A stretch of DNA of 64,000 bases. Origin: Minisyncoccia bacterium. GTDB taxonomy: Bacteria; Patescibacteriota; Minisyncoccia; Phycocordibacterales; UBA918. The position numbers and the translations under genes are program-made. The notes under the pieces are model-generated. The model had not been told where the DNA came from and ran no database searches. It saw nothing but the letters and a program-made list of their open reading frames with translations. Where the stretch lies: assembly GCA_041750655.1 (NCBI GenBank), contig JBGSYZ010000007.1, positions 41,493 through 105,492 on the forward strand, given 5' to 3'. Below, piece by piece: positions 8,598-63,548 of the stretch (the stretch's first letter is position 1; each line of letters opens with the position of its first letter).

Positions 8598-9236
8598 ATG
8601 AAGGTCAATGAAATATACAAAAAGTATAATATAAACAAAGGATTGCAGGAGCATATGCTCCGTGTGGCAGCAGTGTCAAAATTAATTTGTGATAATTTTG
8701 ATACTGATTTAGATAAAGAAAATGTAGTTAATGCATGTTTGCTTCATGATATGGCAAACCTAATAAAGTCAAAACTCGATAGCGCCCCAGAATTATTTGA
8801 ACCGGAAGGAATTGAGTATTGGGAAGGTGTTAAAAATGAAATGATAAGTAAATATGGAAATAATGTTCATGAAGCAACGTCTAAAATAGTTTCAGAAGTC
8901 ACTAACGAAGAAAAAATAAATATACTCGTAAGTGAAATGGCTTTTGATGCGATTAAAGAAATTGCTGAAAAAGGTAAAGTTGAAGTAAAAATTGCTTTAT
9001 ATTCAGATATGAGAGTGGGTATGTACGGCATTATTTCTCTCGATGAAAGATTTGATGATATAAAAGAACGATATGTTCCACGCGGTCGTTTTAGTGCTGA
9101 AGAGATAGAAGCTAGAAGGGAAGCAGCAAAAAGAATTGAAGATAAAATTTTCACGCATTGCAAAATCAAACCAGAAGATATAAATGATGAATCGACAAAA
9201 GTTATTCAGCAGGGATTATTAGGAGTAGAAATTTAA
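8598..9236 (+). CDS. HD-domain phosphohydrolase-like protein
   Basis: [12 protein letters not shown]...[10 protein letters not shown] fits the HD-motif spacing. Confidence 0.45.
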
Positions 9237-9237
9237 A

Positions 9238-9726
9238 ATGATTAAAAAAGCTTATTTAGCTGGGGGTTGCTTCTGGGGTCTCGAAGAACTTTTGCGCACC
9301 CAACCAGGCATTATCAGCACCGAAGCCGGGTACTGTGGTGGTAAAAATGAAAATCCAACGTACCGTGACCACCCTGGTCACGCTGAGTCGTTAGAGATTG
9401 AATACGATGACACAGTGACAAGTTATAAAAAAATTCTCGATTTCTTTTTTCAAATCCATAACCCGACTACCCTTAACCAGCAAGGGAATGATAAGGGCAC
9501 GTCGTATCGCTCTGCTATTTTCTATGCCAATGATGAAGAGAAGGCGGTTGCCCAAGAGATGATAGAGATAGTAAACGAATCAGGTCGCTGGGATAACCCG
9601 GTGGTGACTACTCTCGAGCCGCTGACTCGTTTTTGGCCGGCTGAACCGGAACATCAAGATTACTTACAACGTTTCCCAAGTGGCTACACTTGTCACGCGA
9701 TTTATTTTGATTCATATCTAGATTAG
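9238..9726 (+). CDS. msrA: Peptide methionine sulfoxide reductase MsrA
   Basis: [13 protein letters not shown] active-site motif and overall MsrA similarity. Confidence 0.85.
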
Positions 9727-9737
9727 TAGGGTAGCAA

Positions 9738-9772
9738 AAAGACCGGCGATCTTTACTCACCGGTCTTTTTAT
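9738..9772 (+). terminator. Rho-independent terminator after msrA
   Basis: AGACCGG...CCGGTCT stem followed by TTTTTATTT. Confidence 0.6.
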
Positions 9773-9798
9773 TTATCAACATCATATATTCCAGTACC

Positions 9799-9827
9799 TT
9801 GCAATACATAGTACCTTATGCTATAAT
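9799..9827 (+). promoter_or_regulatory. Sigma70-like promoter for the PadR gene (near-leaderless transcript)
   Basis: TTGCAA - 17 nt - TATAAT; -10 ends 6 nt before ATG 9834; imperfect CATAGTACCTTATG palindrome overlaps (possible operator). Confidence 0.5.
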
Positions 9828-9833
9828 ATTATT

Positions 9834-10196
9834 ATGACAGATACGTCGAGCACATACAGTGTAGAAAACGCCGAATCGCAAATGCGAAAAGGTTTTTTAG
9901 AATTTCCAGTTTTATTAATTATTGGGGCTAAACCAACCTATGCACCGGATATTTTGAAGCAGCTCAAACAAGCGGATTTGTTGGTCGTGGAAGGAACTCT
10001 TTATCCATTGCTTTCCAGAATGAAACGAGCTGAGCTGGTTTCATACACTTGGGAAGAAAGTAAGAGTGGACCACCACGCAAGATGTACACCATCACCGCC
10101 TCTGGAGAAAAAGCCCTTAAACAGTTAGAGATTTCTTGGAAACGTCTCGACTCATCCGTAAACACCTTAATCAAACACTATGAAAAAAGTAATTAA
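9834..10196 (+). CDS. PadR family transcriptional regulator
   Basis: GTLYPLLSRMKRAELV...PRKMYTIT matches the PadR winged-helix signature. Confidence 0.8.
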   Translation: MTDTSSTYSVENAESQMRKGFLEFPVLLIIGAKPTYAPDILKQLKQADLLVVEGTLYPLLSRMKRAELVSYTWEESKSGPPRKMYTITASGEKALKQLEISWKRLDSSVNTLIKHYEKSN

Positions 10197-11376
10197 CATA
10201 ACCCTCGGTGGACTAGTGTTCGCTATTGAACAACCTGCTTACGATGCTTTAGAAAACTATCTTAAAGCAATTAGATCTACACTTACTTCTGATGATGCTG
10301 CAGAGGTAGTGGCTGATATAGAGACAGCTATAGCTGAAAAATTTGTAGCTCGCAATCGTAGTGAAAAAATAGCAGTGACAGAAGAAGACGTAAAAATAAT
10401 CGTTACAGAAATGGGCACACCGGCTGACTTTGGTGGAGAAGAAGACAGTGGGGCAAAAAATACTAAGGATACTAGTGAAGATGATATTAAAAAACGTCTC
10501 TATCGCGATACTGATGACGTAGTAATCGCCGGTGTTGCTTCAGGAATAGCCAAGTATTTTGATATTGATCCAGTGATTGTGCGAGTACTTTTTGTAATAT
10601 CGATTTTCTTTAATGGTCTTGGTCTCATTGTGTACGTGTTGTTATGGTTGGTTGTCCCGGCTGCTGAAACAACTACTCAAAAATACGCGATGCGGGGTGA
10701 GAAAGTAACTCTTAAAGAAATTACGGAACGAGTAAAAAAAAATCTGAACGATTTAGAAAGCAGCAATCTTGAGAAAGCTAGAGGAATTGGTTCGTCGCTA
10801 AGAAATATTCTAGTTAAGTTATTTGAAGTGGTTGGTGTCCTCATACGGGTGCTAGCAAAAGTAATTAGATATATTTTAGGATTTATTTTTGTGGTTGGTG
10901 GAGCTCTAAGTATTGCTGGACTCGTCTCAGCCTACTGCGTAATACTACTTTCAGATCGAGTTTTAATGCCTGCTGAAGTACAAACCTCTCTAGAAATAAT
11001 GTTGAGCTCCACCATGGGTGTAGTAGCAATAACTGCTTCGTTTGTGATGATGATTATTCCGATGCTTATTATTGTGGTAGCTGGGGCATGCTTAATAGCA
11101 AAGCGTAATTATTTTACAGTAACAAAATTAGTGACACTGTTTGTGGTTTGGGTAGTGGCAATAATCTTAGCTTTCACTGCGTCTGCCTTGCAGGTGGAAA
11201 AAGTTATGCAAGCCATTGGTCCTCTTGAAGACACAGAAAAATACAACATCCATATAAATGTTGACGATACCGGAGTTAATATTGAAAGAGAAGTGGTTGA
11301 AGAAGGCGAAAAAAGTCTGCCACCAGAAACTGAACCGATTGAATTACCAGATATTGAGAGTGCAAATATTGAGTAG
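10180..11376 (+). CDS. DUF1700-like / PspC-domain membrane protein
   Basis: N-terminal segment typical of PadR-associated DUF1700; central PspC motif (VIAGVASGIAKYFDIDPVIVRVLFVI); multiple TM helices. Confidence 0.6.
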   Translation: MKKVINITLGGLVFAIEQPAYDALENYLKAIRSTLTSDDAAEVVADIETAIAEKFVARNRSEKIAVTEEDVKIIVTEMGTPADFGGEEDSGAKNTKDTSEDDIKKRLYRDTDDVVIAGVASGIAKYFDIDPVIVRVLFVISIFFNGLGLIVYVLLWLVVPAAETTTQKYAMRGEKVTLKEITERVKKNLNDLESSNLEKARGIGSSLRNILVKLFEVVGVLIRVLAKVIRYILGFIFVVGGALSIAGLVSAYCVILLSDRVLMPAEVQTSLEIMLSSTMGVVAITASFVMMIIPMLIIVVAGACLIAKRNYFTVTKLVTLFVVWVVAIILAFTASALQVEKVMQAIGPLEDTEKYNIHINVDDTGVNIEREVVEEGEKSLPPETEPIELPDIESANIE

Positions 11377-11384
11377 AGTGCTAG

Positions 11385-11417
11385 AAAAAAGCCGGACCTT
11401 CGGTCCGGCTTTTTTCT
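11385..11417. terminator. Bidirectional rho-independent terminator
   Basis: A6-GCCGGACC-TTCG-GGTCCGGC-T7. Confidence 0.75.
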
Positions 11418-11841
11418 ATGTTTCAGCGCGCCAGCGCTTAAGGAGTTTGGAAAGCCCAAGTGAAGTGATGAAAATCAAGACTGAAAGAATGAGAAATTTT
11501 GGTTCTAAAACGTTGAAACTAAAACCTTCCATTTTAAATTCTTCTAAATTAAGTGAAGCCCCGATTGAAACAAATGTTGCTGTGCCAAGCAGGATTCCCA
11601 AGAACGTAGCGGTAATAAAGGGAATAAACTTAGTGTTAAGAATACCGGCAAAATAACTAACACCATCAAATGGGAGAAAGATAAGACGCATGGTAAGGAT
11701 GGCTTCAAAGGTGTTGGCGCGGAGAGTTTCAACCCAGTTACCTAATAGCGAATCTTCAAGGCGTAATCCTTTGCCGAAGAAACGTCCGACAGCATACGCG
11801 ACGGCAGAAGATATGGTAGCGGCAATGATGGTAAGTACAGT
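11416..11841 (-). CDS. C-terminal TVP38/TMEM64 (DedA superfamily) portion, in frame with the upstream ORF across a single TGA
   Basis: No stop codon in the 50 codons between the TGA (11842-11844) and the track ORF 11416..11691; encoded ...AYAVGRFFGKGLRLEDSLLGNWVETL...PFDGVSYFAGILNTKFIPF matches the TVP38 family. Confidence 0.5.
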   Translation of the reverse strand, partial: TVLTIIAATISSAVAYAVGRFFGKGLRLEDSLLGNWVETLRANTFEAILTMRLIFLPFDGVSYFAGILNTKFIPFITATFLGILLGTATFVSIGASLNLEEFKMEGFSFNVLEPKFLILSVLIFITSLGLSKLLKRWRAET

Positions 11842-13494
11842 TCAATAGACAAAACCAAAGAAAATTCCGGAGAGAATGGTGAGGGCAGCAGCCGGAAAGA
11901 AGGTAATTGGTCTAATGGTGTAAAAAAGAATATAGACGAGTGGACCCCAGGCCGTCATCGACACAAAGTCAAAAATCATGAGGGCAGTTTGGGTGGTGTC
12001 CATGCTGTTGGCAGCCTTGTAGTTGGAAATAAGAGAAAGTATAAGTACCCAGATTAGGCCGGCGATTATTTTAGACAGGTGACGCTTGAAAAGATTGAGG
12101 ATGTCGGTTTTAAGTGAACTCAATTGCTCGGCGAAAAAATAATCGCCGGCTTTTTTAATGACAAGAGAGTACGTAGGGTAGGCATAAATTGTTCGACGCA
12201 ATTGCCACATAGAAATCTTGTTATCAATCGCCAAGGTAAAAGGAGTGATAAGTTCACCGGCTCGCGGTCCTATAATGTGTGCACCAAGAACAGCACCGTT
12301 GAGGCGTCTGGCAATAACGACGAGTAAGCCGGCAGTTTCACCATCGGTCTTAGCTCGATCGTTTTCTGAAAATGGCACTTCAATCCGAATCAATTGGTTT
12401 TCCGGGTATTTAATTTTGGCATCATTCCACGACATGCCTACTTGAGCTACTTCTGGAGTAGTGTACGTGACTTTCGGGATAGCTTTTGTATTTTTTACTC
12501 GCAACCAACCTTTGCTCACTACTCGTGTAACTACTTGTCGCGCCGTGTCATCTGCAGTGTGTGTAAATTTATATCTCTGAGCGACGTCGCCAATGACGTA
12601 GACGTATTTGTTGCTGGTTCGATGTTGACTATCGACTTTTACGCCCTGAGCATCAAATGTAATTCCAGCTGCATCTAAACCTTTGGGAATATTAGGAATA
12701 CGCCCAATAGCCACGAGTACGTTGTCAAAAGGAACTGAAAAAGTTTCTGTAACGGTATCACCGTCTTTGCGGTCGAAAATGGCTTTGCCATTTTCGACTT
12801 TTGTTATAAACGCCTGTGTCTCAATTCTGACACCAGTTTCTTCTAAGGCATTTTTTAATATCGGCCTAATAGATTCATCTTCCAATCGGCCAAAGTCGTT
12901 GTCAATGGTAGCGATAGTAACTTGACTACCAAGCATTGATAGAGCTTGGCCCATCTCTAAACCGATAGGTCCAGAACCAATAACCAACGTTTGTTTTGGA
13001 ATTTCAGTTAGTGAAAAAAGATTTTGGTTGGTAAGAATTTCCGATTCGGCTAAACCAGGTACATGTATAAGTCGTGGCGAGGAACCAGTGGCAATAATAG
13101 CGTTTTTATAATGATATATATCCGTACCAATTTTGATAGAACATTTTGTATTAAAAATCGCTTCGCCGAGCACCACGTCTATACCCAATTTTTCAAATGT
13201 TTCCGGTGTTTCCTCATTTAAAATGTTAGTAATAACACCACGTACGTAGTTGAAAGCTTCGGTGCGAAAAGCTTCGCTTTTCGCACCCTCACCAGCTACT
13301 TTTACCGCAGCATAATATTCTTTGGCTTTATGCAGTAGCGCTTTGCTGGGAATACAGCCCGAGTTGGTACATTCACCACCCATATGTTCGCGTTCTACCA
13401 GGAGAACTTTTTTTCCAACTTTTGAAAATCCCACAGCAGCCGTGAGTCCACCTGAGCCAGCCCCTATCACTACCACGTCGTACAATTTCTCCAT
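11842..13494 (-). CDS. FAD-dependent pyridine nucleotide-disulfide oxidoreductase fused to the N-terminal part of a TVP38/DedA domain; ends at an in-frame TGA
   Basis: VVVIGAGSGGLTAA Rossmann motif; redox CxxxxC (GGECTNSGCIPSK); C-terminal dimerisation region; then TM helices of TVP38 interrupted by TGA at 11842-11844. Confidence 0.75.
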   Translation of the reverse strand: MEKLYDVVVIGAGSGGLTAAVGFSKVGKKVLLVEREHMGGECTNSGCIPSKALLHKAKEYYAAVKVAGEGAKSEAFRTEAFNYVRGVITNILNEETPETFEKLGIDVVLGEAIFNTKCSIKIGTDIYHYKNAIIATGSSPRLIHVPGLAESEILTNQNLFSLTEIPKQTLVIGSGPIGLEMGQALSMLGSQVTIATIDNDFGRLEDESIRPILKNALEETGVRIETQAFITKVENGKAIFDRKDGDTVTETFSVPFDNVLVAIGRIPNIPKGLDAAGITFDAQGVKVDSQHRTSNKYVYVIGDVAQRYKFTHTADDTARQVVTRVVSKGWLRVKNTKAIPKVTYTTPEVAQVGMSWNDAKIKYPENQLIRIEVPFSENDRAKTDGETAGLLVVIARRLNGAVLGAHIIGPRAGELITPFTLAIDNKISMWQLRRTIYAYPTYSLVIKKAGDYFFAEQLSSLKTDILNLFKRHLSKIIAGLIWVLILSLISNYKAANSMDTTQTALMIFDFVSMTAWGPLVYILFYTIRPITFFPAAALTILSGIFFGFVY

Positions 13495-13560
13495 GTAAAG
13501 TTAAGTTAACGTTAATAAATAAATTATACACTATTCATACTTACTCCTGAGATAAAAAAT

Positions 13561-13593
13561 TGCCGCCCGAGTGGTCGGGCGGCATGCTTTTGG
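13561..13593 (-). terminator. Rho-independent terminator for 13594..14010
   Basis: TGCCGCCCGA-GTGG-TCGGGCGGCA hairpin; T-run on the minus strand. Confidence 0.65.
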
Positions 13594-14010
13594 TTAGGGT
13601 GATACTTCCGTAACAACGCTTTGTCTGAATGGTCTGTTCGATAGACCATAAAAGATTACCTTATCAAGTGTTACCATGGAAATATAAAGATCATCAACAC
13701 CGTTTATATCGAAGCGTCTTCTAACACCCAATTTTTTAATTTCAAGTGGCTGGATTGAGGTAGAACTAACCCGACACGATTTGTTTGCATATTTTCGTTG
13801 AGTGCTATCCAAGGTAAGAGCTTTTGTTAAAGCAACATCACCGTAGTACTGCCAAGTATGCCACAGAGTGAACGTTTGCCCCATGGTAGGGCAGATGATA
13901 GTAAAATCAGAATTCTCTGGCTGTAAAATCACTTCATCCCCAGTCGTAATTTCAAATATAGAGATTGAAATTCCGTAGATGAAGATGAAGAGAAATTCAA
14001 TTAAAAGCAT
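13594..14010 (-). CDS. Hypothetical membrane-anchored protein
   Basis: N-terminal hydrophobic helix; 138 aa. Confidence 0.4.
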   Translation of the reverse strand: MLLIEFLFIFIYGISISIFEITTGDEVILQPENSDFTIICPTMGQTFTLWHTWQYYGDVALTKALTLDSTQRKYANKSCRVSSTSIQPLEIKKLGVRRRFDINGVDDLYISMVTLDKVIFYGLSNRPFRQSVVTEVSP

Positions 14011-14085
14011 GCGCCACCTCCTTGTCTGTACCTAGATTACGTATTATTTATTTAGGGTCAAGTTATGAGTATGATTAATAAACAA

Positions 14086-14105
14086 GCGCGTGCCCGGGGC
14101 ACGCG
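14086..14105 (-). terminator. Rho-independent terminator for 14108..14410
   Basis: GCGCGTGCCC/GGGCACGCGC palindrome next to the stop, T-rich on the minus strand. Confidence 0.6.
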
Positions 14106-14107
14106 CT

Positions 14108-14410
14108 TCAATTATCACAACTCCATTTGTCAAAATAATGTCTATATACCAAACATTCCAATTCTTTCAGTTTTTTATTGTTGTCGGTATTTATTTTCTT
14201 CAGTTCTTGGAGCGTGGCAATTGCACAGGTAAAGTCATTGGTACATAGCCACAGCACTTCTGACTCAAGTATTGAAGTGTGAAGCTCCAAGCCCGTGGCA
14301 GATTTAAGTACGAACTCGTATCCTCGGCGACCCATCTCGTACATCCACTCTCGACCTAAACCGGGGTTAAAACCAAGTTGAAAGATGAGAATGAAAGGCA
14401 TGATTTTCAT
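14108..14410 (-). CDS. Small secreted hypothetical protein
   Basis: Signal-peptide-like N-terminus (MKIMPFILIFQLGF). Confidence 0.4.
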   Translation of the reverse strand: MKIMPFILIFQLGFNPGLGREWMYEMGRRGYEFVLKSATGLELHTSILESEVLWLCTNDFTCAIATLQELKKINTDNNKKLKELECLVYRHYFDKWSCDN

Positions 14411-17608: not shown

Positions 17609-18049
17609 ATGAGTAAAAATATAACTATGACCTACACACGTTCACTTTCACAAATTTTTGTTTTAGGAGTCGCTTTACTAATCTTGTTTAGTTACCAGTA
17701 TCTGGGGGCGGCCTGGACCAATCCTCCAAGTTCACCAACCAGCAATAATGTAGACGCGCCGATAAATGTAGGTACAGATCCTCAGATTAAGCTAGGTGAC
17801 ATTACCGCTGTACATCAAAAAGCAGGCTCACAAATGTGGTCACCTGAATACTGTGATGAAAACGGCGCTAATTGTATTGATCCAGCGACAGCAGTTTTTA
17901 TAAATGCGGCTTGTAGTGATGGTAATATACTCTATAAAACTGGTGGTTCGTGGACATGTGTGAACAATGTAACCAACTTATTCCCGTCTTGTTCAAACGG
18001 ACAGGTTTTAATGAAGGACGGTGGAGTGTGGGGTTGTACTGATAAATAA
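17609..18049 (+). CDS. Secreted hypothetical protein
   Basis: N-terminal TM/signal segment; six Cys; 6-nt spacing to the next gene (operon). Confidence 0.45.
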   Translation: MSKNITMTYTRSLSQIFVLGVALLILFSYQYLGAAWTNPPSSPTSNNVDAPINVGTDPQIKLGDITAVHQKAGSQMWSPEYCDENGANCIDPATAVFINAACSDGNILYKTGGSWTCVNNVTNLFPSCSNGQVLMKDGGVWGCTDK

Positions 18050-18055
18050 ATCTTC

Positions 18056-19174
18056 ATGAATTTTGCATATACCATTCGAAATTCAGCCTTTATTGCCTTT
18101 GCTATTTTGTTTGTTTACTTAATTTCTCAAACAACTTTCGCGCAATCTGTAACCAGTACGCTTGGTGGCTACGCCTGGAGTAGTACTATTGGGTGGCTAC
18201 AAATGAGCGGAGTTGCTTCTGATAGCTCAATATACGGAGTAAATCTTGACTCCTCTTCAAATCTGAGTGGCTACGCCTGGAGTAGTACTATTGGGTGGGT
18301 GAAATTTGGTAGCCTGTCTGGTTGTCCAGCTACCTCAAATTGTGATGCCCGTATAGTCAGTGGGGGTGAATTAAGTGGATGGGCTCGCGCTTGTACAGTA
18401 TTTCAATCAGGATGTAGCGGAGCTTTAAAACCAGATACAGCAACAGGAGGTTGGGATGGTTGGATATCACTCAATTGTAATAACACATTGTCGTGTGGTA
18501 CTAGTAACTATAGATGGAAACTAACTGGCTCTACTATTTCAGGGTATGCGTGGGGTGGCAGTGTAGTCGGTTGGTTATATGCCGATAATATTGACCTAGG
18601 ACTATCGCCTGCTACCGTAAATATTGGTGTACGTACACTAGGTTCTAGTAACCCGTTTACCTATACTTCACCATATCCACTTAGTGATGGTGAAGAAATT
18701 GAAGTAGGCTGGGATTCAGCCGACGCCTATGAGTGTTTTTCTACTCAAGGTAGTGGATTTTCAACCAGCGCTCAACTCAATGGTGTTGATGATACAGTTA
18801 GTGAACCAGCTAGTGGTTCCACAGAGACCTTCACAATATTTTGTCGTGGTATAGCAGGTGATGGGGCAGATTCCATTACTGTTGAATACCCTGTATCACA
18901 GGTTAGTATTTGGACTGAACCTATAATAACCGAACTAAACAACACGGTTATGATTTATTGGGATGTGACTGGCAATGATCCAGCAGCCTGCTCAATATCA
19001 GGACCTAATGGCTTTGGGATGACTTTAATCGCTGGCGAAGAATCCGGCTCGGTATCGAGTGACCCAATAGAAGGAGAGTCAGACTACACCATCACGTGCG
19101 CCGCCAACGGTATTAATCCAGCTGCTAATAATGCTGTTAAGGTCCGAGTGAATGCTAGTTCAGTAGAATCATAA
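18056..19174 (+). CDS. Secreted repeat protein (GYAWSSTIGW repeats)
   Basis: Signal peptide (AFAILFVYLISQTTFAQS); three GYAW(S/G)(S/G)(T/S)(I/V)GW repeats; exact 32-nt DNA duplication at 18165..18197 and 18267..18298. Confidence 0.45.
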   Translation: MNFAYTIRNSAFIAFAILFVYLISQTTFAQSVTSTLGGYAWSSTIGWLQMSGVASDSSIYGVNLDSSSNLSGYAWSSTIGWVKFGSLSGCPATSNCDARIVSGGELSGWARACTVFQSGCSGALKPDTATGGWDGWISLNCNNTLSCGTSNYRWKLTGSTISGYAWGGSVVGWLYADNIDLGLSPATVNIGVRTLGSSNPFTYTSPYPLSDGEEIEVGWDSADAYECFSTQGSGFSTSAQLNGVDDTVSEPASGSTETFTIFCRGIAGDGADSITVEYPVSQVSIWTEPIITELNNTVMIYWDVTGNDPAACSISGPNGFGMTLIAGEESGSVSSDPIEGESDYTITCAANGINPAANNAVKVRVNASSVES

Positions 19175-21133: not shown

Positions 21134-21259
21134 TTATCCCCACGTATAGCTTGTTATAACAGGTAAAGGATAAGAGAATACTAACAACGGAGGCGTCCCA
21201 GAGAGGGACCGCCTTTTTTGTTGTTTCACCACACATTATTACATTATAAAATTATACAT

Positions 21260-23770
21260 ATGAGTACCGTACTAAATTTATCAAACATACTAAGAACACT
21301 GGCTCTTAGTTCAATCATAGCCTTGTATGTAGCTACTGCACCAATGGCTTCAGCAGCTTCATTAAGTGATATGTCCAATATCCTTACCAAGCTGCAGACT
21401 ACACTAGAACAATATCTAGCAAAGCTGCCTGGTGGAGATGTTTTGGGTGCTACTACTATCGTGGTAACGAACTCATCTGAGTTAGCAAACGCTATGGCTA
21501 ATGCTACTGGGGGAGAAACCATTCAGTTGGCACCAGGTAACTACGGCAAGATTTTCATTCAGACCGGCACCTACGCAAAATTGGTTGTTGGGGGTACTAC
21601 TATAAAGAATGTGCCAAATCCCTCCAGTCCAGTGTTAATTGAGTCACAGAACGCTAGCAATCCTGCTGTACTGACTCAAATTGATATTCGTAACAGTAAC
21701 TACTGGCATTTCAATAATTTGAACATTTTGCCTGGTCCACAAAAACCAACTTACAACGCGGTGAACTTCGCTGGAGATTATTTAACTCTAGAAAATTCAG
21801 TCATCGACTACGGTAACAACACCAACTACACTGCTAGCGATTGGCTCAACAAAGCTGGTCTCGGAGTATATGTAAACGGGAAGCACAATACCGTAAAAAA
21901 TAACTACCTGCATACTGTCGACAACGGCATCATTGTTGTCCACCATGCTGATTATGCGCAGATTATCAACAACACTGTTGATGGACTTTCAGGCGATGCT
22001 TCACGAGCACTTGGACACTATGGTCTTTTTGAGAACAACCTTTTCAAGAACTTCCATAAAGTTGATGCTAACCACGATGACTGTATGCAGTCATATATGG
22101 AAGCTGGTGTAAGTTCTTCACCAAACGCTGAGACCTTTATTACCGGTACCATTGTTCGAAATAACATTTGTATCGACACCACTGGTTCCCGCAGCGATCC
22201 TTTGTATTCAAACCCACAAGGGTATGTGCAGTTTTCTGGCTCAATGAATAATTGGATAGTTGAAAATAACGTCTATATTTCTTCAGCCTATCACGGGATT
22301 AATATGAGCGGTGGTAACGGTTCAACAATTAAGAACAATACAATCCTTGACTCTGACCCGGTTATAAATGGTTCAGATACAGTGTGGATTCGATTTGCTG
22401 GGGCACAAAATAGTGTGATGAAAGATAATGTTTCAAGTAAGTTTACCAATATTGTTTCTGGAGCAACTTATACCAACAACCAAGTGGTGAATTACAGCAA
22501 CTACGACAACCTCTTCCGCGACTGGCGTAACGGTGACGTTCGACTTAAGAGCGGTCAAAGTCTCAGTGGAGCAGGTGCTAATCTCGATCCAGCTACTGTT
22601 GGTAGCAATCGATCAATCACTACCACCACTCCAACCCCAACCCCAACCCCAACCCCAACCCCAACCCCAACTCCAACTCCAACTCCAACTCCAACTCCAA
22701 CTCCAACTCCAACTCCAACTCCAACCCCAACCCCAACAGCAGCTCCAACTCTTGTTTTCACTGCTTCACCAAGCAATATAACTTCAGCAAGACGAGTTAC
22801 GCTTACATGGACAACGACTGGTGCTACTTCATGTATTGCAAGTGGTTCCTGGTCAGGAAACAAAGCAGTTAATGGTTCGATTACTGACACGTTTAAGAGT
22901 ACAGAAACCCTCACCCTTACTTGTACTGGAGCTGGTGGTAGTGTGAGCAAGGATGTGACAGTTACGCTAGGTACAACCCCTACTCCTACTCCTACTCCTA
23001 CCCCTACCCCTACCCCTACTCCTACTCCAGGAAATGGAGAAGTATCTTGGACTTCAAAGTTTGGTCCACAGTCTAGAGTTGTTACAACAGATGTTGTAAA
23101 TGTTAGAAAGTCAGAAAGCTTTACAACACTCGGCACACAAACAGTAGGAAGTGCTGGTACTGTATTAAACATCAGTCCTATACTTAAAGATGGTTATGTT
23201 TACATTCCAGTTGATTTCGACAATTCACCTGATGGATGGGTTGCAGATACTTTTGTTAGAAATGAACCTGTAACGACTCAAATAGCTGAAACCCCAAAAA
23301 CAGAAACTCCTAAGACAGAAACTCCTAAGACAGAGACTCCAAAAACCGAACAACCAACTACTGAAACCCCTAAAACAGAGGTTTCAAAGACAGAGACTCC
23401 AACTACTGAAACCCCTAAAACTACCGAAGGTGTTACTGAAAGAATTATCACTACCGATCGTGTTAATGTTCGAGAAAAAGCTGGTGGTAAAGTCTTGGGT
23501 ATACAACCAGAACGTAGTCAAGGTACAGTATTAAACATTGAACCAAAAGCTAATAGTGGTTACACCTACATCCCAGTCAACTTCGATTCTGGAGTAGACG
23601 GATGGGTAGCTGATAAGTTTGTCACAATTGAAGGTGGTTCAACTTCAGTTGAGACACCACGCACCGAAGGTTCAACGGTTAACGCTGAAACTATTCGAGC
23701 CATGATTAATGATTTGTTAGCTCAGATTGCTGCTCTGCAAGCGCTCTTAGCTCAAATGCAAGGTAATTAA
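21260..23770 (+). CDS. Secreted right-handed beta-helix (pectate-lyase-fold) protein with PT-rich linkers and two SH3b-like domains
   Basis: Signal peptide (likely start M15 of track ORF 21218); NNxxxG / NNYLH parallel beta-helix repeats; (TP)n linkers; two homologous ~60-aa segments (TTDxVNVRxxxxxxxLGxQxxxxxGTVLNIxP...GYxYIPVxFDxxxDGWVADxFV) typical of bacterial SH3 domains; C-terminal coiled coil. Confidence 0.6.
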   Translation: MSTVLNLSNILRTLALSSIIALYVATAPMASAASLSDMSNILTKLQTTLEQYLAKLPGGDVLGATTIVVTNSSELANAMANATGGETIQLAPGNYGKIFIQTGTYAKLVVGGTTIKNVPNPSSPVLIESQNASNPAVLTQIDIRNSNYWHFNNLNILPGPQKPTYNAVNFAGDYLTLENSVIDYGNNTNYTASDWLNKAGLGVYVNGKHNTVKNNYLHTVDNGIIVVHHADYAQIINNTVDGLSGDASRALGHYGLFENNLFKNFHKVDANHDDCMQSYMEAGVSSSPNAETFITGTIVRNNICIDTTGSRSDPLYSNPQGYVQFSGSMNNWIVENNVYISSAYHGINMSGGNGSTIKNNTILDSDPVINGSDTVWIRFAGAQNSVMKDNVSSKFTNIVSGATYTNNQVVNYSNYDNLFRDWRNGDVRLKSGQSLSGAGANLDPATVGSNRSITTTTPTPTPTPTPTPTPTPTPTPTPTPTPTPTPTPTPTPTAAPTLVFTASPSNITSARRVTLTWTTTGATSCIASGSWSGNKAVNGSITDTFKSTETLTLTCTGAGGSVSKDVTVTLGTTPTPTPTPTPTPTPTPTPGNGEVSWTSKFGPQSRVVTTDVVNVRKSESFTTLGTQTVGSAGTVLNISPILKDGYVYIPVDFDNSPDGWVADTFVRNEPVTTQIAETPKTETPKTETPKTETPKTEQPTTETPKTEVSKTETPTTETPKTTEGVTERIITTDRVNVREKAGGKVLGIQPERSQGTVLNIEPKANSGYTYIPVNFDSGVDGWVADKFVTIEGGSTSVETPRTEGSTVNAETIRAMINDLLAQIAALQALLAQMQGN
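22621..22742 (+). repeat. Tandem hexanucleotide repeat (ACYCCA)n, ~20 units, encoding a (TP)n linker
   Basis: ACTCCAACCCCAACCCCA...ACTCCAACTCCA perfect period-6 array inside the CDS. Confidence 0.9.
22975..23030 (+). repeat. Second hexanucleotide array (ACYCCT)n, ~9 units, encoding (TP)n
   Basis: ACCCCTACTCCTACTCCT... period 6. Confidence 0.85.
23288..23425 (+). repeat. Period-15 coding repeat (ETPKT)n
   Basis: GAAACTCCTAAGACA repeated with minor variation, 8-9 units. Confidence 0.8.
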
Positions 23771-43633: not shown

Positions 43634-44992
43634 ATGTCAGTACTTGGATTTTACGGTGGAGTAGGAAGTGTAACCGGAGCAAATTTTTTGTTAGATACCG
43701 GTAACGCCGCTTTTTTAGTTGATTGCGGTTTGATTCAAGGTGACCGCTTCGCACAAGAAGCTAACGCTGATCCGTTTATTTATAATCCAGCTGATATCGA
43801 TGTGTTAATGGTCACTCACGCTCACGCCGACCATATTGGCCGTATCGGTAAGCTCATCAAGGATGGCTTTACCGGCACTATCTATTCCACTCCTCCGACA
43901 AAAGATTTGGCTAATGTCATGTTACGAGACGCTATAAAAGTTATGCGTTTTGAGGAAGAAAAGTACGGCACAGAAGTATTGTATGAAGAGTCAGATATTG
44001 ATGAAGCCTTGCGCCACTGGAAAACCGCTCCGTACAATCAACCAATTGAAATGCCTGACGATGTTATCGCTACCTTCACTGATGCTGGACACATTCTTGG
44101 CTCGGCGATGGTGCATTTTGAGCGTAATGGCAAGCACATTGTCTTTACTGGTGACATTGGCAATGTGCCTCAACCACTTCTTAACCCACCGGTTCCACCC
44201 ACCAACTATCAATATTTAGTGATGGAAAGTGTGTATGGTGATCGCACTCATGAAGAGGTAAAGGAGCGAACTGATTTACTGCGTTTTTATATTGAAGATA
44301 CAATTAAAAAAGGAGGGACACTGCTTATTCCTGCTTTTTCACTCGAACGTACTCAGGGAATGTTGTATGAAATAAATAATCTGGTTGAGGAGGCGGGAAT
44401 GGCACCAGTACCGGTTTTTCTTGATTCTCCCCTAGCTATCAGCGTAACTGGTATTTACAAGGAACACCATGAATATTTAAAGGATTCAGTCCGTAAAGAA
44501 ATTGAAAGTGGCGATGATATTTTTTACTTTCCAAAGCTCGAGTTTACTAACACTCGCAAAGATTCCGAAGAGATACACGAAGAAAAAGGTCCTAAAGTTA
44601 TTATTGCTGGTAGTGGCATGAGCCACGGAGGTAGGATTTTAGGTCACGAAAAACGATACCTCGAAGATAAAAATAGCACGCTGCTTCTTGTTGGTTATCA
44701 GGCAGTGGGAAGTATTGGTCGACTCCTCAACGATGGCGCCAAGAAAGTGACAATCGATAATGTCGAAGTAAAAGTAAAAGCTCGAGTAGCGCGCATTCGT
44801 GGGTATTCCGGGCACGCTGATCGCGACCAGCTGGTAGAGATAGTGGCTGCTGGTGGCGAGAATGCCAAGCAGGTATTTGTGACCATGGGTGAAGAACGGT
44901 CCTCACTTTTTTTGGTGCAACGATTACGCGATTATTTAGGAGTAAATGCGGTGGCACCGGAGCAAGACCAGGAAGTAGAAATCGACTTCTGA
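43634..44992 (+). CDS. MBL-fold beta-CASP family ribonuclease-like hydrolase
   Basis: VTHAHADHIG zinc motif; C-terminal GYSGHAD (beta-CASP motif C). Confidence 0.6.
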   Translation: MSVLGFYGGVGSVTGANFLLDTGNAAFLVDCGLIQGDRFAQEANADPFIYNPADIDVLMVTHAHADHIGRIGKLIKDGFTGTIYSTPPTKDLANVMLRDAIKVMRFEEEKYGTEVLYEESDIDEALRHWKTAPYNQPIEMPDDVIATFTDAGHILGSAMVHFERNGKHIVFTGDIGNVPQPLLNPPVPPTNYQYLVMESVYGDRTHEEVKERTDLLRFYIEDTIKKGGTLLIPAFSLERTQGMLYEINNLVEEAGMAPVPVFLDSPLAISVTGIYKEHHEYLKDSVRKEIESGDDIFYFPKLEFTNTRKDSEEIHEEKGPKVIIAGSGMSHGGRILGHEKRYLEDKNSTLLLVGYQAVGSIGRLLNDGAKKVTIDNVEVKVKARVARIRGYSGHADRDQLVEIVAAGGENAKQVFVTMGEERSSLFLVQRLRDYLGVNAVAPEQDQEVEIDF

Positions 44993-53808: not shown

Positions 53809-54741
53809 ATGTCTAAATACCAACGTTCACAAATAAAAATCGTAATTCTGGCAGTTTTTGTGCTGTTGGTTGGTGTATTAGTGGTGCGTGGAGAAACAGT
53901 TGGTTCAACATTTGCGACTGGCTCAGGAACTGGTGGTCTGGAGTTACAGATAGACAGCAGGACTTACTACAATGGTGTTTTGCAACCGAAATTGTCTTGG
54001 GGATTGAAAAACTTAAAACCATGGAGTGATCGTTTCTTCAAATTTGAAGATGTAAAACCAGGGGACACCGGTACGACCACCATCAGTATTCACATTAAGA
54101 AAAACCCGGCCTGGGTGTGTTTAGATTTTCAAAATCTAAAAGACAAAGAGAACGGTGAAAATGAACCAGAATCATATGAAGATGGTAATGACGGAGGCGA
54201 GCTCTCAAAAGAGCTTGAATTCTTTGCGTGGCGTGATGATGGCGACAATATCTTTGAAGTTGGAGAAAAACCCCTCTTTGGAACCAGTAGCCAATCAGCT
54301 AAAGAGGTTTTAAAAGGGAAATCGTATGCTATTGCTGATAGTACACATGGTCCGGCTCAAGCATCTAATCAAACCAAATACGTGGGAATCAATTGGTGTG
54401 CCGGAGATTTGTCAGTCAATGTCGCGACTGCTGAAATTACGTGTGATGCGGAAGCGATGGGCAATGAAGCCCAAACTGATTCAATGACACTTGATGTTTC
54501 ACTGCGGGCGGTCGCATCTAAACAACAGTCAAAGTTTAAGTGTGTGATGGATGACGAAGGTGAACATCATGGTGGACCAAAAGGTGATCATGATGACGAT
54601 GATGAAGACGATAATCACAACGATGACGATGATGACACTTCATGGCACCACGGTGGGTCAAAAGATAATGCTTGGAATAAGACAAAAAATTACTGCAAGA
54701 ACGCGTGGCAGAAAGTAAAAAATTATAAAAGACATTCATGA
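53809..54741 (+). CDS. TasA/camelysin-like secreted protein (paralogue 3, divergent N-terminus, His/Asp-rich tail)
   Basis: FFKFEDVKPGDTGTTTISIHI and overall collinearity with paralogues 1-2; C-terminal HHGGPKGDHDDDDEDDNHNDDDDD. Confidence 0.5.
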   Translation: MSKYQRSQIKIVILAVFVLLVGVLVVRGETVGSTFATGSGTGGLELQIDSRTYYNGVLQPKLSWGLKNLKPWSDRFFKFEDVKPGDTGTTTISIHIKKNPAWVCLDFQNLKDKENGENEPESYEDGNDGGELSKELEFFAWRDDGDNIFEVGEKPLFGTSSQSAKEVLKGKSYAIADSTHGPAQASNQTKYVGINWCAGDLSVNVATAEITCDAEAMGNEAQTDSMTLDVSLRAVASKQQSKFKCVMDDEGEHHGGPKGDHDDDDEDDNHNDDDDDTSWHHGGSKDNAWNKTKNYCKNAWQKVKNYKRHS

Positions 54742-61614: not shown

Positions 61615-62007
61615 TGGTGGAGATGGTGGAAATCGAATCCACGTCCGAGAATGGTCACACATATGATTCTTCAATGCATAGCTACACTTTTAAGTTTTAA
61701 TATGATGATAGGAAGTGTAGCCAAAGCTCACCATATCTAGTTCGTACATCTCGGTTTCCTAGCCGAACAGTTTAGGATTCCGCAGTCTCATTTTTATTCC
61801 ACCCCACGCCACTTATGAGACTTCAGTGGGTGAAGCGTCGCTCCGGCCGGCGTTATTTACGCGAAAGCGGGTGCGAATCCAAACGCGTTAGCGTACGGAC
61901 TTGGTACAGATTTGTTTGCATCTATACGTGGTTGCCTTTTAACGAATGGCGACCAATTTCGACATTGCACATATGTATGGGTCAAACCGTCGATGCCTGT
62001 CATCCCC
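61615..62007 (-). ncRNA. ssrA: tmRNA (transfer-messenger RNA), 393 nt, one-piece
   Basis: 5' GGGGAUGACAGGCAUCGACGG... and 3' ...GGACGUGGAUUCGAUUUCCACCAUCUCCACCA (T-arm, acceptor, CCA); G3-U70 wobble in the acceptor stem; tag ORF GCA AAC ... TAA (61857..61919) after UAGAU encodes ANKSVPSPYANAFGFAPAFA; terminator ACCACCC...GGGTGGT plus U-run downstream; smpB upstream. Confidence 0.8.
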
Positions 62008-63092: not shown

Positions 63093-63548
63093 TTACTGAA
63101 ATTTCAAAGATCGTCTGAGCTCGCGCTCGGTGTCACGCTTTTTAATTGATTCACGCTTATCTGCCTTCTTTTTACCACGTGCTACAGCAATTTCAAGCTT
63201 GATAGTGCTCTTTTTATTATACAACGAAATAGGCACTATTGTCAAACCAGATTGTTCGCTCTGTTTGTACAGTTCAGCCAGCTGTTTCTTGTTCAAAAGA
63301 AGTTTTCGAGTACGTTCTGGATCGTAATCAGCGCTAACGTTCTTTTTTTGGAAGGCCGGGATACTGGAGCCAGTTAAAAAAGCTTCGCCACCACGAATTA
63401 CCACATGGGCGCCCTCGAGCTTGCCCTGGCCTTTTCGGACTGATTTTACCTCAGTACCAAGCAGCGAAATACCCGCCTCGTAGGTCTCAAGGATTTCAAA
63501 ATCAAAGTAGGCCTTTTTGTTGCTCACTAATGCCATAGGTGTGGTCAT
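63093..63548 (-). CDS. smpB: SsrA-binding protein SmpB
   Basis: Full-length similarity to SmpB; basic C-terminal tail. Confidence 0.9.
   Translation of the reverse strand: MTTPMALVSNKKAYFDFEILETYEAGISLLGTEVKSVRKGQGKLEGAHVVIRGGEAFLTGSSIPAFQKKNVSADYDPERTRKLLLNKKQLAELYKQSEQSGLTIVPISLYNKKSTIKLEIAVARGKKKADKRESIKKRDTERELRRSLKFQ

Follow-up and report, generated by a model that had tools for sequence, protein, structure and literature searches.

DedA-type membrane proteins of COG0398 (TVP38/TMEM64-type) occur as fusions with other domains, and the commonest of these fusions combines them with PF07992 and PF02852 (Todor et al. 2023, mBio, PMC10127716). The DedA core contains two re-entrant helices that are considered to be the substrate site (PMC10127716). 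Here, we focus on a gene of this kind in a stretch of 64,000 nucleotides (nt) from a Minisyncoccia bacterium (GenBank assembly GCA_041750655.1, contig JBGSYZ010000007.1, positions 41,493 to 105,492 of the forward strand), which is referred to as the window. The gene encodes an oxidoreductase fused to a VTT/DedA membrane domain, and its reading frame is interrupted by an in-frame TGA. It has the same three Pfam domains as the described COG0398 fusions, together with two VTT re-entrant segments (FFPAA... and FLPFDG...), and the oxidoreductase is N-terminal in the Patescibacteria family; it differs in that the window copy is cut at codon 551. The putative assignment to COG0398 rests on the fusion partner, as in PMC10127716.

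An internal TGA in this phylum invites comparison with genetic code 25, in which UGA encodes glycine and which is known from Absconditabacteria (SR1) and Gracilibacteria (Campbell et al. 2013; Rinke et al. 2013, summarised in PMC13293708). Within Patescibacteria, UGA-to-Gly recoding is reported to be limited to the Gracilibacteria/JAEDAM01 lineage, including the former SR1 (PMC13293708). The present locus resembles that system in having UGA at a position where all homologs carry glycine, in a member of the same phylum. It differs in that there is a single case here but many per gene there, in that UGA serves as a terminator in this window, and in belonging to another lineage. With ordinary nonsense pseudogenes and null alleles, on the other hand, the locus shares a stop codon one base away from a sense codon that relatives use at the site, a gene that is dispensable in a sister lineage, a TGA that is not conserved and the lack of any recoding signal; nothing substantive sets it apart from them, the lesion being very young and without secondary decay. 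The finding is real but ordinary, and a recent GGA-to-TGA nonsense mutation is its probable cause.

The gene lies on the minus strand and starts at ATG 13494, and the coordinates of its parts are collected in table 1. Its 550-codon open reading frame (ORF) stops at TGA 11844..11842. The sequence-only reading had described a product of 550 amino acids (aa) ending in the middle of a TVP38 domain, a frame that stays open for 50 codons as far as a 91-aa ORF, and a full-length protein of about 692 aa. All of this was borne out: read-through translation yields 692 aa, and the 91-aa ORF was listed owing to ATG 11691, which stands 50 codons past the TGA. Pfam recognises three domains in the read-through product, Pyr_redox_2 (residues 5-316), Pyr_redox_dim (339-448) and VTT_dom (533-646), and the stop at position 551 lies inside the last of these. 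The matches to PF07992 (187.9 bits; cut-off 26.1) and PF02852 (87.6 bits; cut-off 25.3) are accompanied, in the read-through frame only, by one to PF09335 (60.2 bits; cut-off 33.9) that covers 1-122 of the 123 profile positions and thus a complete domain with both re-entrant segments; for the 550-aa product no PF09335 match is on record. Together with Cys42 and Cys47, these domains uphold the earlier description of an oxidoreductase-TVP38/DedA fusion with a CTNSGC centre.

The entire read-through frame is matched collinearly by more than 100 homologs of 683-708 aa, and full-length Patescibacteria homologs of about 692 aa number in the hundreds. The sole shortened entry among the homologs is the window's own 550-aa product. 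In the other TGA-ended ORFs of the window the frame stays open for just 0-56 codons past the stop, compared with 141 codons here, and the extension here corresponds by homology to the remainder of the domain in those full-length proteins; the open frame beyond the TGA is therefore more than chance. No records were returned when the exact products of the 550-aa ORF, the 91-aa ORF and the adjacent 398-aa gene were looked up, and no second copy of the 30-48 nt around the site was found in genome_contigs or metagenome_contigs with an exact pattern that allowed N at the variable base.

The interrupted codon falls in a conserved stretch (G543, F546, G547, G551, T555, A566, Y567 and G570). Column 551 of the alignment is glycine in 119 of 119 full-length homologs, with neither Cys nor Sec in any of them. 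TGA is seen in none of these proteins and in none of the 27 relatives compared at the DNA level, where the codons are GGT (12), GGA (7), GGC (5) and GGG (3). The two relatives closest by the gene itself, L001 (77%) and L004 (74%), carry GGC and GGT, respectively, and those closest by EF-G (L036, L038 and L040) carry GGC. A single G-to-T transversion converts GGA to TGA, and the suspect base is the plus-strand A at 11844. It had been proposed from the sequence that Gly or Trp in orthologues would be informative. The residue is indeed invariably glycine, but this does not discriminate, since a single step separates GGA from TGA and GGA makes up about 20% of the codons able to mutate to TGA (18-20% by usage among the eight sense codons one step away; 20-24% of the Gly codons in the window). 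The probability that a new TGA lands on a Gly column by plain mutation is about 0.2, and such a TGA is not in itself evidence for Gly decoding.

Programmed recoding would have UGA read at this site as glycine, in a code-25-like manner by a tRNA-Gly with anticodon UCA, or as selenocysteine. The exact placement of the TGA at an invariant Gly column would agree with it, as would the fact that the host phylum holds the only known UGA=Gly lineage (PMC13293708), yet with a probability of that size for an ancestral GGA the coincidence is a weak one. The use of TGA elsewhere in the window speaks against recoding. In a stop-to-stop analysis, nearly all long coding ORFs of the window have no internal TGA. 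Among the 78 ORFs of a gene call that is crude, as are its starts, 38 end with TAA, 23 with TAG and 17 with TGA. Three TGA-ended genes are complete with respect to their profiles, encoding an ABC-F protein (3-494 of 499), a beta-CASP RNase (to 628 of 631) and the CMP kinase Cmk (161 of 169), and an ATGA overlap occurs at 54738-54741. Instead of the many in-frame UGAs at conserved Gly columns that characterise code 25, there is one in about 78 ORFs, and UGA is a terminator of the three genes just named. Codes 4 and 25 are ruled out for the window as a whole by real genes without internal TGA, several of which end on TGA. The nearest named relatives of both EF-G and the interrupted gene are Nomurabacteria, Kaiserbacteria and Paceibacterota, and by these sequence matches the organism is placed with Paceibacteria of the Nomurabacteria/Kaiserbacteria type and outside Gracilibacteria/JAEDAM01 (including Absconditabacteria), the group to which UGA=Gly is reported to be confined (PMC13293708).

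When about 35 genes from the loci of the two closest relatives were aligned to the window with tblastn, the oxidoreductase-DedA gene alone aligned across a stop, and no frameshift or further stop was detected elsewhere among them. Eight adjacent same-frame ORF pairs were considered as further interrupted genes, and each clearly consists of two separate genes (such as S17/L14, L6/L18, and SmpB beside its neighbour). The window has a standard code, a clean assembly and exactly one interrupted gene, and the earlier description of the TGA as 'single' is correct in that no other interrupted gene was found in the window.

Signals of recoding are likewise missing at the site. In an Rfam scan of 11300-12100 at an E-value threshold, only weak matches were obtained, all of them on the terminator hairpin at about 11385-11415 and none at the TGA; across the whole window the one match is to transfer-messenger RNA (tmRNA). 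No hairpin resembling a selenocysteine insertion sequence (SECIS) follows the UGA: the 86 nt from just before it fold at -13 kcal/mol, compared with a shuffle mean of -16.4 (z = +1.1). Bacterial selenoproteins are marked by such a hairpin and by Cys or Sec at the homologous position, and neither is present here; nor is the stop conserved among relatives ahead of a conserved coding extension, as in programmed readthrough. No tRNA genes are found in the window or in 31 related loci, which says nothing on a suppressor tRNA, and no release-factor GGQ motif is encoded in the window. Copies of the gene that are broken in other assemblies were considered as support for recoding and set aside, since they have frameshifts or an N-gap and no in-frame TGA. 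Programmed recoding is among the explanations to which we give least credence. The same holds for partial reading of UGA as glycine, for instance by a low-level tRNA-Gly(UCA) or another suppressor with UGA remaining the usual stop, under which the allele would be tolerated and which would represent an ambiguous intermediate of the UGA-to-Gly reassignment known from other Patescibacteria. Of the four options in the sequence-only reading, a recent nonsense mutation and a sequencing error thus fit all of the evidence, whereas readthrough or recoding and a lineage with sense UGA are unsupported; TGA terminates genes here, has no second in-frame occurrence and no counterpart in relatives, and is not accompanied by structure, and the organism lies outside the UGA=Gly group.

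A milder form of decoding would be a leaky stop, at which a near-cognate tRNA, typically tRNA-Trp, suppresses UGA and a little full-length protein is made; the allele would then be tolerated, with some selection still acting on the downstream part. Of the stop codons, UGA is in general the leakiest, and the intact downstream frame would be expected under such leakage. The classic leaky context is UGA-C, however, and here the next base is A (UGA-A). Insertion of Trp, Cys or Arg at an invariant Gly in a packed helix is unlikely to restore function. No stimulatory structure is present, and the TGA is not conserved in any relative. We regard leakage as improbable, though somewhat less so than the two forms of recoding above.

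The downstream part might instead be expressed in its own right. In a functional gene fission, the 550-aa protein would cooperate with a separately initiated protein of 91 aa, for which an in-frame ATG (11691) is available 50 codons past the stop. No motif like a Shine-Dalgarno (SD) sequence precedes this ATG. Such motifs are rare here in any case, an SD-like 4-mer at -20..-4 being present at 13 of 61 crude gene starts in the window and absent from the interrupted gene itself, which hints at weak SD usage, the starts being crude. A second protein starting at ATG 11691 would, however, lack the 50 conserved residues between stop and ATG, including the invariant T555, A566, G570 and F573. For these two reasons, the missing SD-like motif and the lost residues, the 91-aa ORF is not a plausible separate gene. 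The sequence-only reading had allowed for orthologues that genuinely terminate at this point ahead of a separate downstream gene, but no such split occurs in more than 100 homologs, the apparent one in L039 being an N-gap artefact. There is no promoter or ribosome-binding site signal for a second gene. The transcription signals would fit a single unit: a terminator hairpin lies directly past the TAG of the full-length frame, no terminator-like element follows the internal TGA, and a TATAAT hexamer without mismatches, 29 nt ahead of the ATG, is likely, from its sequence, to be the -10 element of a monocistronic unit. Gene fission is very unlikely, scarcely more credible than recoding.

The age of the lesion can be judged from the sequence behind it. 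The ratio of nonsynonymous to synonymous substitution (dN/dS) around the stop is uninformative, since synonymous sites are saturated relative to the nearest relatives (74-77% aa identity); lineage-specific aa changes were counted instead. Changes specific to the window, with L001 and L004 in agreement, number 65 of 540 upstream of the stop and nine of 141 downstream, and the corresponding downstream tally for L001 and for L004 is 14 of 141 each. The downstream part retains 79% aa identity to L001/L004. There is no relaxed evolution behind the stop, which must therefore be very young, erroneous or ineffective.

An error of sequencing, consensus or co-assembly would mean that the true codon is GGA, that the 692-aa gene is intact and that the T arose as an assembly artefact or was taken into the consensus from a minor strain variant. 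The perfectly intact and conserved 141 downstream codons are what an error would leave behind, the contig is metagenome-assembled and related records are co-assembled metagenome-assembled genomes, and other assemblies of this gene have artefacts, with a split at an N-gap in L039 and multiple frameshifts in L032. Consensus-level substitution errors are rare in short-read assemblies, however, and the remainder of the window is clean, with no other stop or frameshift in the 35 or so genes compared. Both an 'ncbi' and an 'lgn' source label (NCBI, Logan) are attached to the truncated product, a weak hint that the TGA recurs in an independent assembly. An error is the most serious of the alternatives, but we consider it unlikely.

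Three points weigh against a nonsense mutation as the explanation. A real mutation and a consensus error are not separable from the assembled sequence; decoding of UGA as glycine would likewise place the TGA at an invariant Gly; and continued translation equally predicts that the 141 downstream codons remain intact. A recent nonsense mutation is still favoured. A single G-to-T transversion would have converted GGA (Gly551) to UGA in an otherwise intact accessory gene, and under the standard code ordinary termination of the RF2 type would be expected there. The product would retain the complete oxidoreductase, the linker and the initial membrane segments. It would lose the remainder of the next transmembrane (TM) helix, together with the second re-entrant helix and the two TM helices at the end. 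Function of the DedA type would probably be lost, because everything after the first VTT re-entrant segment is missing. The lesion would be very young, given that all 141 codons past it have stayed open and match those of intact orthologs in conservation. In a variable and dispensable part of the genome, it could represent the first step of gene decay or a null allele at the level of strains.

The surroundings of the gene agree with such a status. A search with EF-G recovered relatives at 95% identity for that protein. In L036, L037 and L040 an intact ortholog (692 aa) stands in the same place, adjoining EF-G, and in L041-L043 there is no homolog of the gene within 10 kb of EF-G. The stretch from DUF1905 to EF-G differs among the three lineages, and the gene thus belongs to a variable, accessory part of the genome, where a null allele would naturally be expected. 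This region spans 8598-14410 in the window, 6393-9786 in L036 and 8146-9646 in L041, next to an EF-G that is 95% identical. In the window it comprises an HD-domain gene, a PspC-domain membrane protein (10180-11376) and the interrupted gene; in L036, other small genes and the ortholog.

Other copies of the gene, in public metagenome-assembled genomes, are broken in different ways, with at least three frame changes in L032 (1501-3567), one frameshift in L028 (1501-3599) and a split by a scaffolding run of 10 Ns in L039 (5610-7699), and these are probably assembly artefacts or pseudogenes. The present case, one premature stop in one accessory gene from a metagenome-assembled genome, matters little by itself and is relevant mainly to annotation, where the locus is best flagged as a pseudogene or a possible error and not as two genes. 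It would gain weight only if UGA were decoded here, which would amount to stop-codon ambiguity outside the one Patescibacteria lineage known for UGA=Gly, and nothing at this locus supports decoding.

Table 1. Coordinates of the interrupted oxidoreductase-DedA gene and of the elements flanking it; positions are those of the window.
Feature	Position	Strand	Details
Bidirectional intrinsic-terminator hairpin	11385..11415	.	GCCGGACC-GAA-GGTCCGGC with A6/T6 flanks; directly past the TAG of the full-length frame
Complete frame of the oxidoreductase-VTT/DedA fusion gene	11416..13494	-	692 sense codons plus the internal TGA; ends at TAG 11418..11416; collinear end to end with homologs of 683-708 aa
Mechanically listed 91-aa ORF	11416..11691	-	Starts at the first in-frame ATG past the TGA
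Open codons past the TGA (141)	11419..11841	-	Rest of VTT/DedA: TM helix, second re-entrant helix (MRLIFLPFDG...), last two TM helices
In-frame TGA, codon 551	11842..11844	-	Plus strand TCA; expected ancestral plus strand TCC
550-aa ORF, standard-code termination	11842..13494	-	Full oxidoreductase (residues 1 to about 460), linker, two hydrophobic helices, first VTT re-entrant segment
Redox-active disulfide motif C42-T-N-S-G-C47	13354..13371	-	Within GGECTNSGCIPSK; aligned to CLNVGC of dihydrolipoamide dehydrogenase 1EBD
Perfect TATAAT hexamer, likely -10 element	13523..13528	-	29 nt upstream of the ATG; from sequence only, not reported by a two-hexamer scan
Terminator-like hairpin of the upstream gene	13561..13584	-	5' boundary of the transcription unit

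The enzyme half has the domains and the CxxxxC motif of a class I FAD/NAD(P) pyridine nucleotide-disulfide oxidoreductase and is assigned to that class on this basis; its redox cysteines are invariant in the family (C43 and C48 in alignment A1). Its nearest matches are dihydrolipoamide dehydrogenases (1EBD, E = 2e-57 to 4e-57, residues 7-449) and MerA, with none of the curated NCBIfam equivalog cut-offs reached (TIGR01350, 339.6 against 408.8; MerA TIGR02053, 295.9 against 454.45). The His-Glu dyad motif HAHPTLGE of 1EBD aligns to YAYPTYSL (residues 439-446; 12157-12180, minus strand), in which Y440, P441, Y443 and L445 are invariant in the family. Because the dyad is replaced and every curated cut-off is missed, the protein is neither a canonical dihydrolipoamide dehydrogenase nor a glutathione reductase, and represents an uncharacterised class I branch that is abundant in Patescibacteria. 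A side value of the locus lies in this family, whose intact members join an oxidoreductase without the His-Glu dyad to a COG0398-type DedA domain and which is functionally uncharacterised.

The membrane layout was derived from hydropathy and from an AlphaFold model of P0002, the intact homolog nearest to the window copy (mean predicted local distance difference test score 81.9; 60-80 in the membrane part). Past the oxidoreductase, both agree on a long linker helix, two hydrophobic helices, the first re-entrant segment RPITFFPAAALTILSGIFFG and a helix at 536-575 that contains the invariant Gly. This helix is followed by a cytoplasmic stretch, the second re-entrant segment and two more TM helices. 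Termination at position 551, inside the helix at 536-575, is predicted to keep the enzyme and its membrane anchor and to remove most of the DedA core.

Within the VTT half, residues 558-560 define two sub-types, 'AAT' in about 51 and 'GEN' in about 68 of the 119 homologs. The window, L001 and L004 are of the AAT type, and L036, which is closest by EF-G, is of the GEN type. Identity between the window and L036 is 75% upstream of the stop and 51% downstream (11419-11841 compared with 7343-7765 of L036), a drop that suggests domain-level replacement or recombination.

Further features of the window lie apart from this gene. The tmRNA gene (tag ANKSVPSPYANAFGFAPAFA; Rfam 111 bits) is near an SmpB-like ORF identified by eye (61615-62007 and 63093-63548, both on the minus strand). 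For the beta-CASP metallo-beta-lactamase RNase at 43634-44992 (plus strand), the best NCBIfam match is 'type VII CRISPR-associated Cas14', at 436 bits against a cut-off of 800 bits, and aCPSF1 is also matched; it is probably a generic beta-CASP RNase. Two adjacent secreted-looking proteins are encoded at 17609-19174 (plus strand), the larger with repeated GYAWSSTIGW-like motifs and many Cys. Because their homologs in relatives are 44-77% identical whereas the flanking EF-G and EF-Tu are 95-97% identical, they are fast-evolving and probably surface proteins. The 850-aa product of 21218-23770 (plus strand) aligns to proteins of 741-979 aa in relatives at its ends only (58-60% identity N-terminally, 41-43% C-terminally), with a non-homologous middle; its counterparts carry TSP_3/F5_F8_type_C or Beta_helix domains, and it looks like a variable surface protein.

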